Assembly (NCBI RefSeq): GCF_041248615.1
Contig: NZ_CP158426.1
Reading direction: 5' to 3' (one strand)
Source: Escherichia coli
Lineage (GTDB): Bacteria > Pseudomonadota > Gammaproteobacteria > Enterobacterales > Enterobacteriaceae
DNA length: 64,000 bases
Positions 4,405-5,188 of this stretch are shown here, one piece after another; the stretch's first letter is position 1; each line of letters starts with the position of its first letter. A program made the translations under genes and the position numbers. The notes below the pieces were generated by a model. The model ran no database searches, was not told the DNA's origin, and worked only from the letters and a program-made list of their open reading frames with translations.

Positions 4405-4464
4405 CACTGTTCATAAATACAGTATCTTTAACGAGGTAATACCCAAATTTAGGGTGTTGCTCAA
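4405..4464 (-). promoter_or_regulatory. LexA (SOS) box overlapping a sigma70-like promoter that reads into the KilA-N / DUF968 / Q genes
   Basis: CTGT-N8-ACAG core at 4407..4422 (20-mer 4405..4424 matches the LexA consensus at 16/20); minus-strand -35 TTGAGC (4459..4464), 17-bp spacer, -10 TATTAC (4436..4441), box just downstream of -10. Confidence 0.55.
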
Positions 4465-4469
4465 TTCCG

Positions 4470-4865
4470 TTACCGAGTTGCTAATTTGCAACTCGCTTTT
4501 TCGTACTTACTGATAGTGATCTCGACCTTCCCCTCCGGGATAACCGGTCCCCACTCCACCAGCATTCTTTTCACCTGACTGTCGTCTTCCCACACACCCG
4601 CGTGGGTCAGGGCGTCAAACAGCGCCTTGTTATAGTTGTCCAGATCGCGGATCCGGTTATCCGGAGGAAACAACACGATCTCCACTGAAGCAGGTGCCGA
4701 CGTTGGTTTCGGCAGACGACGTAACTGCTCAACTATTGCTGCGCACGCCGCGCTCTGGAATTTGCGCCCCGCTGCGCTTATCAGACTCTTACCAGCAAAC
4801 GCCCCTTTGTTGGGGTGTCGCCAGTACGTGTTCACGCTGGGCGGGAAAGGCAGGATCAGCTTCAT
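4470..4865 (-). CDS. rusA: RusA Holliday-junction resolvase
   Basis: 131 aa; PPSVNTYWRH, RDLDNYNKALFDALT motifs as in DLP12 RusA. Confidence 0.85.
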   Translation of the reverse strand: MKLILPFPPSVNTYWRHPNKGAFAGKSLISAAGRKFQSAACAAIVEQLRRLPKPTSAPASVEIVLFPPDNRIRDLDNYNKALFDALTHAGVWEDDSQVKRMLVEWGPVIPEGKVEITISKYEKASCKLATR

Positions 4866-5188
4866 ACTTTCAGGCCCCTCTCATGTAACCAGTGGGCTGC
4901 ACGCAGCCTGCCGTTTTCCTCACCGGCAAGCAGTGCGCGGATAATCCCGACCGCCTCGCTGTCGTCGTCCTTCACCGCGGTATGAAGCGTTATCCCCCGG
5001 GCCACGCCACGCTTTATCGTGATGACGCCTTTTTTCTCCAGTGCACGAAGATGCTCTACCGCTGCATTCACTGAACGGTATCCCAGCATGGTTGCCACCT
5101 CCTGATTGGTTGGCGGAAAGCCACGCTCTTTCTGGTAAGAAATCAGCATATCCAGCACCTGCTGCTGGCATTGAGTTAACGTCGTCAT
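4862..5188 (-). CDS. LexA N-terminal DNA-binding-domain paralog lacking the S24 autoprotease domain (108 aa from ATG 5188)
   Basis: LTQCQQQVLDMLISYQKERGFPPTNQEVATMLGYRSVNAAVEHLRALEKKGVITIKRGVARGITL aligns at roughly half identity to the recalled E. coli LexA N-terminus; protein ends before any Ser/Lys peptidase region; start TAATG-coupled to upstream gene. Confidence 0.7.
   Translation of the reverse strand: MTTLTQCQQQVLDMLISYQKERGFPPTNQEVATMLGYRSVNAAVEHLRALEKKGVITIKRGVARGITLHTAVKDDDSEAVGIIRALLAGEENGRLRAAHWLHERGLKV

Follow-up and report, generated by a model that had tools for sequence, protein, structure and literature searches.

The 64 kb stretch of DNA analysed here (the window) is a segment of the Escherichia coli chromosome that carries a lambdoid prophage of the SfIV/SfII/Stx2c type, with host DNA (hsdS, symE) at its far end. 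A near-consensus SOS (LexA) box lies at 4405–4424 in the early operon of this prophage, upstream of genes for a KilA-N domain protein, a DUF968 protein and a Q-type antiterminator. Further upstream, separated from the box by rusA, is the gene of a 108-amino-acid (108-aa) protein that has the winged helix of LexA and lacks its autoprotease domain. The explanation that accounts best for these elements, which we favour tentatively and with confidence a little short of even, is that host LexA gates a promoter reading into KilA-N, DUF968 and Q, and that the 108-aa protein binds SOS-like boxes and is proof against RecA. The box and the gene are inherited independently of each other.

The SOS box and the region between rusA and KilA-N

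The box reads CACTGTTCATAAATACAGTA, or TACTGTATTTATGAACAGTG on the minus strand, and matches the consensus TACTGTATATATATACAGTA at 16 of 20 positions, with the core CTGT-N8-ACAG at 4407–4422. Scores were obtained with a position matrix derived from 27 canonical E. coli SOS boxes, which is a rough instrument. By this measure the full 20-mer reaches 21.3 bits, the highest score in the 64 kb, against a best of 16.4 bits in 20 shuffles, and falls inside the range of leave-one-out scores of genuine boxes (7.1–25.5 bits). The near-consensus SOS box reported in a first-pass annotation of this DNA is thus confirmed. The core alone is not significant: the window contains two copies where 0.61 would be expected, and 10 of 100 shuffles reach that number. 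It is the full 20-mer that counts as evidence. The second-best score in the window (17.2 bits) belongs to 60375–60394 (TACTGATGATATATCCAGGT), ~95 nt upstream of symE (60470–60811) and beside hsdS (58503–60248). This sequence is the known operator of symE, a gene established as a LexA target, and provides a positive control for the matrix within the window itself, with the reservation that the symE box was in the training list. The sole other CTGT-N8-ACAG in the window, at 30722–30737 (CTGTTTACCCTGACAG), has a GC-rich spacer, scores 8.8 bits and is probably a chance match. Judged by its sequence, the box at 4405–4424 is very likely to be bound by LexA in vitro.

The rightward early operon lies on the minus strand and begins with a cro-like gene, ymfL and a DUF4222 gene. 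These are followed by an O-like replication initiator gene (5679–6620), which heads the replication/nin block, a PerC/YfdN-family gene (5188–5682), the 108-aa open reading frame (ORF; 4862–5188), and rusA, which encodes a Holliday-junction resolvase (4470–4865). An intergenic region of ~150 nt, the only sizeable gap in the gene string from O to Q, holds the box. Downstream of it come the KilA-N gene (3492–4319), a DUF968/HNH-like gene of the YdfU family (2495–3490) and the ydfT/quuQ-like antiterminator gene Q (1729–2481), all on the same strand. The KilA-N ORF (PHROG 129) reaches a GTG at 4319, and its PGAP start is the ATG at 4307. The last three genes abut without intergenic gaps, DUF968 overlapping the stop of KilA-N and Q following 13 nt after DUF968. 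Terminator-like matches between the box and Q are weak only, and every one of them lies within an ORF. Since there is no intergenic room for a terminator among the three genes, transcripts that start near the box would probably read through into Q.

Promoter candidates occur on the minus strand on either side of the box. They were scored with a simple hexamer-plus-spacer matrix, and the best score per 240 nt was used as background. The candidate named in the first-pass annotation, at 4436–4464, consists of TTGAGC (4464–4459), a 17-bp spacer and TATTAC (4441–4436). It matches the consensus at 8 of 12 positions and lacks the -7 T, and a consensus promoter scan makes no call there. The box begins 11 nt downstream of the TATTAC -10 element and would then sit at about +5 to +25. 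A better-scoring candidate at 4371–4399, positioned downstream of the box, consists of TTGATA (4399–4394), a 17-bp spacer and TAAGTT (4376–4371). It scores 11.0, above the 95th percentile of the background, and both of its hexamers are essentially retained in a 94%-identical copy of the region (TTGATA to TTGATT). It is plausible that the box is embedded in a promoter, lying either just past the start site of a weak one or upstream of a better one.

Two other elements of the region have the potential to form hairpins. The first is a perfect 8-bp palindrome at 4474–4495 (GCGAGTTGC-AAATTA-GCAACTCG on the minus strand), which marks the 5' edge of the cassette. It sits inside the variant-specific 3' end of rusA, and a T-run behind the hairpin is found only on the plus strand. 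The second, at 4333–4357 on the minus strand, lies in the 5' untranslated region (5'-UTR) of KilA-N and has an invariant loop, GTGCAG, with the core GGGAGTGCAGTCCC at 4351–4338. Irrespective of lineage and of the presence of the box, this hairpin lies 25–45 nt ahead of the KilA-N start codon (also in loci L119, L117, L199 and L171), and the two sides of its stem covary (GGGA/TCCC, GGCGG/CCGCC, GGGC/GCCC and GCGGG/CCCGC). The unboxed variant has it within the 3' end of rusA. The hairpin may be an RNA element that governs translation or processing of KilA-N.

The truncated LexA homologue

The 108-aa protein consists of a winged helix (residues 1–68) and a two-helix tail (residues 76–103). Pfam LexA_DNA_bind (PF01726) matches it over the whole model (1–65 of 65, E = 3.8e-19), and phmmer aligns it with the LexA N-terminal domain structure 1LEA without gaps over residues 2–70 (E = 6.8e-16). 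Identity to E. coli LexA is 45–51%, in keeping with the roughly half identity that had been estimated. The Pfam search of the protein gives no S24 domain, and the chain stops at residue 108. The NCBIfam LexA equivalog TIGR00498 reaches 70.1 bits against a curated cut-off of 110.95, with only model positions 1–91 of 203 matched, so that the missing S24 autoprotease noted earlier is borne out as well. The catalytic residues Ser119 and Lys156 are absent, as is a conserved cleavage site. By its sequence the protein is not LexA proper and, since it lacks the S24 domain, these residues and the site, should be unable to respond to RecA. Cleavage in trans at LLAGEE, which aligns with VAAGEP of LexA, was considered and rejected because the A-G becomes AN, AK or VG among family members; we regard this cleavage-like stretch as vestigial.

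The residues through which LexA contacts DNA are Ser39, Asn41, Ala42, Glu44 and Glu45 (PMC3091678). In the recognition helix of the 108-aa protein (RSVNAAVEHLRAL, compared with RSPNAAEEHLKAL of LexA) four of these five contacts are conserved (S39, N41, A42 and E45) and the fifth is changed from E44 to V. The wing residues R64-G65-I66 are also retained. An AlphaFold2 (AF2) model with a predicted local distance difference test (pLDDT) score of 84.8 shows a three-helix winged helix followed by a helical hairpin (H76–88 and H91–103). In Foldseek the domain superposes on LexA in the LexA–DNA complex 3JSO with a root-mean-square deviation (rmsd) of 1.0 Å over 68 residues; matches to proteins other than LexA (YtrA-type GntR, MarR) were discarded at an rmsd of ~9 Å. 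The two-helix tail is conserved down to 39% identity. The gene overlaps both of its neighbours, the PerC/YfdN stop at its start (TAATG) and the rusA start at its stop (ATGA), which agrees with the translational coupling that had been proposed.

The protein belongs to PHROG 362 (E = 1.1e-58; protein residues 1–108, model 1–106) and is named 'LexA family transcriptional regulator' by PGAP. The PHROG 362/PGAP family comprises proteins of 106–118 aa, each a DNA-binding domain (DBD) plus tail, from enterobacterial lambdoid phages, with members in SfV, SfII, SfIV, cdtI, mEp460, mEp390 and Stx2a/2c phages. It is abundant, with clusters of 2527, 782 and 374 member sequences and occurrences in thousands of E. 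coli, Shigella and Salmonella prophages, and it is listed as 'pham 237' in a survey of Stx phages. Mentions in the searchable literature are of this catalogue style only, and no functional study was found there. The first-pass annotation had singled out the DBD-only partner as the unusual part of the arrangement; it is less unusual than supposed there, as the E. coli family already has these entries and names and a precedent exists in gp6 of GIL01, a tectivirus of Bacillus thuringiensis. Many short LexA-DBD-only proteins also occur across phages, including Mycobacterium phage Wildcat, tectiviruses and uncultured Caudovirales (P0132, P0133, P0148, P0152 and others), and some proteins have two tandem LexA DNA-binding domains.

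Distribution of the box, the gene and their neighbours

Of 5426 complete E. coli genomes, 185 carry the boxed cassette, in each case at the junction of rusA and KilA-N; it is also found in phage SfIV, PhiR49_1 and the Stx2a prophage of O104:H4 C227-11. The box is identical in 177 of the 185 genomes, and in these the cassette as a whole is at least 99% identical. The most diverged copy (94%) carries 10 substitutions in ~165 nt with the core intact. Its single change within the 20-mer, G to A, is towards the consensus, which is consistent with function of the box but not informative.

Among 80 loci from IMG/VR there are two main arrangements upstream of KilA-N. In one the boxed ~150-nt cassette is present, always with a ~100%-identical KilA-N gene. 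In the other, KilA-N is 66–70% identical and follows rusA after ~25 nt, with neither an intergenic region nor a box. The N-terminal halves of the boxed and the common unboxed KilA-N proteins are ~50% identical, whereas 96 of the last 97 residues are the same. Because the variants differ only in the N-terminal half, the boundary of the cassette lies inside the gene, and the cassette arrived with a different N-domain. From these alignments it appears that the ~150-bp cassette replaced the ~25-nt rusA–KilA-N junction of the common variant in the manner of a moron. Pfam places the KilA-N domain at residues 14–118 (E = 2.2e-15) and finds no domain in the C-terminal half of the protein, and in particular no ANT/KilAC domain. 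KilA-N as a domain-swapped Ant was considered and dropped, as BLASTP against the pRha/ANT protein that occupies the same slot elsewhere gave no match. The KilA-N variants show no link to a cI type.

It is with rusA, and not with the box, that the DBD gene is consistently associated. The two genes adjoin in ~180 related loci, down to 39% identity of the DBD protein and often with a stop/start overlap: in all 80 loci selected for a 98–100% identical DBD gene, in 95 of 95 loci of two distant subfamilies (one at +630), and in five of six distant relatives (39–51% identity), the sixth having an inserted gene on the reverse strand. In the distant loci the DBD gene is preceded by a gene for replication or for a DNA methylase, frequently a Dam or C5 methylase, and family members are occasionally called as Dam–DBD fusions. 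Downstream of rusA these loci have a KilA-N protein, a pRha-ANT protein or nothing, and then DUF968 and Q. No strong box was found beside the DBD gene or at the rusA–KilA-N junction in the 95 loci of the distant subfamilies. Two candidates at this junction elsewhere, a degenerate one in L170 (8.3 bits) and a borderline one in L117 (12.2 bits), were rejected; both score below the shuffle maxima.

SOS boxes do occur at other positions in related phages. CTGT-Nk-ACAG was counted for k = 0–20 in early regions of phages that carry the DBD gene, a sample of ~80 kb with some redundancy. Only a spacing of 8 is over-represented, ~10-fold, with 10 occurrences where 0.98 would be expected; the remaining spacings occur about as often as expected. 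Four distinct boxes of the form TACTGT...ACAGT(A/G) are found in these phages: that of the KilA-N cassette, one in a cI-type ORF, one in a methyltransferase gene and one in locus L172. The second of these is a near-perfect box, TACTGTTTTTATATACAGTA (25–27 bits), inside the helix-turn-helix (HTH) and S24 cI-type repressor ORF of another immunity type (SfII/O104-type). It is present at L004 2094–2113, at L168 858–877 (the O104:H4 Stx2a prophage), and in L184, L185, L194, L200, L235 and L264. Its spacer varies among lineages while CTGT and ACAG are fixed, and it is not present in the cI of the window. The third, SOS-like, box (TACTGTAAAAATAAACAGTG, or with the spacer AAATTTAA) lies over codons 3–9 of an N6/N4 DNA methyltransferase gene ~0.6–1 kb downstream of Q (L004 8908–8927; L172 7739–7758; L254, L257 and L260–L262), and could be either a coding coincidence or a real operator.

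The fourth box is found at L172 4470–4600 (NCBI chromosome AP025685.1), a locus whose DBD is 39% identical to that of the 108-aa protein. Here a good intrinsic terminator, a promoter-like stretch and a 26.2-bit box, TACTGTTTATATATACAGTG, stand in this order directly upstream of a 75-aa ORF, which is followed by the DBD gene, RusA, DUF968 and Q. In this locus the gene of the truncated LexA itself stands behind an SOS box. A scan of viral contigs seeded with P0214, the L172 type, found no relatives. Taken together, these sequences suggest that control of the LexA type recurs in the nin/Q region and, in L172, takes in the DBD gene itself.

The prophage repressor gene of cI type is encoded on the plus strand at 7929–8615, and its product has an HTH_3 domain and a complete Peptidase_S24 domain (model 2–116 of 116, E = 1.8e-14). 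By virtue of this domain the prophage is presumably inducible by RecA directly. The gene is convergent with, and overlaps at its 3' end, a gene for a BRCT-domain protein at 8598–9518 on the minus strand (a 306-aa ORF, 296 aa by PGAP). BRCT domains bind partners related to DNA damage, making this an unusual neighbour for an SOS-responsive repressor. Downstream of Q, csp genes at 579–794 and 1094–1306 are morons, as in the Qin prophage. A 5' UTR of the cspA thermoregulator type (Rfam RF01766, 159.6 bits) lies at 516–955 on the minus strand ahead of the cspB-like gene, with a cspF-like gene opposite. The Rfam scan of positions 1–12000 returned nothing beyond this element.

Proposed regulation, alternatives and known systems

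Under the favoured explanation the ~150-bp cassette (4320–4495), with its palindrome, promoter, SOS box and 5'-UTR hairpin, would constitute an internal promoter gated by host LexA. In the lysogen, LexA bound at 4405–4424 would keep this promoter closed. Upon DNA damage LexA would cleave itself, and KilA-N, DUF968 and probably Q would be transcribed without cI cleavage, pR or N. The 108-aa protein would be made from pR only after induction, once cI is gone. Its two-helix tail would probably dimerise in place of the LexA C-terminal domain, and the protein would most likely bind operators of the CTGT (SOS-like) type, succeeding the destroyed LexA. It would thus re-close or retune the KilA-N promoter where this is present, and possibly host SOS promoters too. 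The LexA-gated promoter is proposed because of the quality of the sequence and its architecture (a position like that in the Gifsy prophages, and the palindrome). The role of the 108-aa protein as an SOS-box binder is proposed because of its contact residues, its fold, its conserved tail and the sufficiency of LexA(1–87) plus a dimeriser.

A number of observations weigh against this explanation. The hexamers, the 17-bp spacer and the position of the box in the promoter of the first-pass annotation are correct, but TTGAGC/TATTAC scores 6.4, at the background median of 6.5 (best score per 240-nt stretch of the window), and the better candidate, TTGATA/TAAGTT, lies downstream of the box and puts it at about -41 to -60 (centre near -50), a poor place for repression. 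Selective conservation of the box cannot be demonstrated because the cassette is nearly invariant, with too little variation to show selection. The box and the LexA-like gene had been suggested to form a phage module, and their distribution does not support this. Among the 80 IMG/VR loci selected for a 98–100% identical DBD gene, one is boxed and 79 are unboxed, and the DBD gene is present in 34 of 36 boxed loci and in 44 of 47 unboxed loci, so that the two are inherited independently rather than as a co-inherited module. Within ~5 kb, 83 of the 95 loci of the distant subfamilies have no strong SOS box, and the distant loci L164–L166 have no CTGT-N8-ACAG of any kind; a phage-borne SOS box is therefore not the obligatory target of the family.

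The same holds for several properties of the proteins. Throughout the DBD family, position 44 holds V, A, T or F in place of the glutamate of LexA, and in distant members E45 is variable as well, changes by which the DNA specificity of the family may have shifted from that of LexA. AF2 run on a self-linked dimer with a paired alignment gives no confident dimer (predicted template modelling score, pTM, 0.34; pLDDT 65). The label 'antirepressor' attached earlier to the KilA-N protein finds no support: the N-terminal KilA-N domain is the only one recognised, with no ANT domain and no similarity to pRha/ANT. Finally, because cI has an S24 domain of its own, a bypass under SOS control is not needed for induction.

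Some of these points would be accommodated if the box were an operator of host LexA but the 108-aa protein, a diverged winged helix, had its own target unrelated to SOS boxes. Possible roles are those of a partner or regulator of RusA or recombination, of the upstream phage methyltransferases, or of replication. The invariant adjacency to rusA (~180 loci, to 39% identity), the frequency of a Dam or C5 methylase as upstream neighbour and the occasional Dam–DBD fusion calls would all fit such a role, as would the lack of a nearby SOS box in most family members and the family-wide difference from LexA at position 44; gp6, in turn, shows that truncated LexA homologues can gain new specificity. However, the recognition helix of the 108-aa protein is far nearer to LexA than that of gp6 is, with four of five contacts kept. 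The RusA homologues of DLP12 and phage 82 work without such a partner, and overlapping genes are usual in phage operons, so the coupling to rusA says little. On balance we consider this alternative rather unlikely.

It is improbable that the box serves chiefly as an operator for the truncated LexA of the phage itself, which would activate KilA-N, DUF968 and Q late in the early phase while LexA competes for the site in the lysogen. The GIL01 system provides a model for such an arrangement, where gp6 binds a GACACAC/GTGTGAC palindrome centred at -43.5 and activates the late promoter P3, the same promoter that LexA represses together with gp7 (PMC6182141). The best-scoring promoter here, downstream of the box, would similarly place the centre of the box near -50, and the location of the DBD gene upstream in the same operon would provide a built-in delay. 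The -50 position, however, rests on a predicted promoter call, in 79 of 80 close relatives and in almost every distant one the DBD gene occurs with no such site before KilA-N/Ant, and the sequence of the protein reveals no activation surface.

The box could in principle be a fortuitous AT-rich palindrome in a recombination scar, with KilA-N, DUF968 and Q expressed solely by read-through from pR. The core is not rare (two against 0.61 expected, reached in 10 of 100 shuffles), no promoter clearly overlaps the box, the commoner variant does without any intergenic region, and the low divergence blocks a conservation test. Against a chance origin, the 20-mer scores 21.3 bits where the shuffle maximum is 16.4, exceeding even the genuine symE operator in the same window, and its sole polymorphism goes towards the consensus. 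The four independent TACTGT...ACAGT(A/G) boxes in related phages and the Gifsy-like architecture point the same way, and we hold this reading to be very improbable. Least probable of all is a LexA-regulated small RNA on the plus strand, antisense to the 3' end of rusA from ~4430 to a terminator at 4474–4503 and transcribed instead of or beside KilA-N: the T-run after the 4474–4495 hairpin is on that strand only (CTTTTTCG) and is called terminator-like there, and the plus-strand TACAGT in the box could act as a -10 element with TTATCA as the -35, but this promoter scores 6.3, at background level, with a 19-bp spacer, the only Rfam match in 1–12000 is the cspA element, and there is no independent conservation evidence.

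If LexA does gate a promoter into Q, DNA damage could start the late genes by a route that bypasses cI. The same cassette is present in the Stx2a prophage of the 2011 O104:H4 outbreak strain, whose late genes include stx2, and a LexA-gated Q would bear on why SOS-inducing antibiotics increase toxin output. Should the 108-aa protein bind to SOS boxes, it would represent a natural LexA of viral origin that resists cleavage, which could end or blunt the host SOS response, silence competing prophages or time phage gene expression. It would also be a Gram-negative counterpart of GIL01 gp6, with LexA-like specificity. In the most far-reaching reading, the whole 108-aa family would be a RecA-proof surrogate LexA that, after the onset of induction or infection, re-silences the boxed promoters of the phage itself, the SOS regulon of the host and, in rival prophages, antirepressors gated by LexA. 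In the boxed minority, Q would be under the direct control of LexA, and late-gene and Stx2 expression would thereby be gated without the involvement of cI; the surrogate would act as the shut-off. This wider proposal is a speculation that we think unlikely.

LexA control of prophage functions is known from Tum of coliphage 186 and AntC of N15. The closest architectural parallel is in the Gifsy prophages, in which a LexA box 1.3 kb downstream of the replication genes, after terminator-like palindromes, drives a dinI homologue and an antirepressor required for induction (PMC3121763). As in Gifsy-1, -2 and -3, the box and its candidate promoter lie outside the immunity region, downstream of the replication genes, upstream of Q and after a palindrome, and would provide an SOS input that does not pass through cI cleavage. 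The systems differ in that the Gifsy repressors are non-cleavable and antirepressor-dependent, whereas the cI here has a complete S24 domain. In addition, the first gene here encodes a KilA-N protein of 271–275 aa rather than a dinI homologue and a small antirepressor, and the promoter appears to feed DUF968 and Q too. Literature searches brought up no paper that deals with the sequence of this box, or with KilA-N as a LexA-controlled gene in Stx, SfIV or O104 phages.

For the 108-aa protein the comparison is with LexA itself, with engineered derivatives and with gp6. LexA(1–87) joined to a heterologous dimerising zipper represses SOS operators in vivo, as in LexA-based two-hybrid systems, and the 108-aa protein is similarly predicted to combine a DBD with a short helical dimeriser. 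It shares with host LexA the same DNA-binding fold (rmsd 1.0 Å) and nearly the same contact residues, and differs from it in having no S24 domain. The characterised truncated LexA homologue is gp6, which is 44% identical to the DBD of its host LexA (PMC6182141). Both are phage-encoded LexA winged-helix domains, ~44–50% identical to the host LexA DBD, that lack the protease and are encoded in an early operon, and both coexist with phage promoters that have LexA boxes, the box here being a predicted one. Profile comparison confirms the shared domain (97% probability, E = 2.9e-11), while no pairwise BLAST similarity is detected between gp6 and the 108-aa family, a pattern consistent with independent captures from different hosts. 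In contrast to gp6, which has 66 aa, no tail, a diverged helix (SHKTAHRY) and a non-LexA site, the 108-aa family has a conserved two-helix tail of 40 aa, and the 108-aa protein keeps S39, N41, A42 and E45 of LexA. No conserved non-LexA palindrome was found for the family. The hosts differ as well, as do the viruses (a tectivirus and a lambdoid siphovirus) and the gene context, which here is rusA. The boxed promoter would thus join the known LexA-controlled prophage loci, and the 108-aa protein is a new, uncharacterised variant of the gp6 type of truncated LexA, its family being set apart from gp6 by the LexA-like recognition helix, the conserved tail and the invariant link to rusA.

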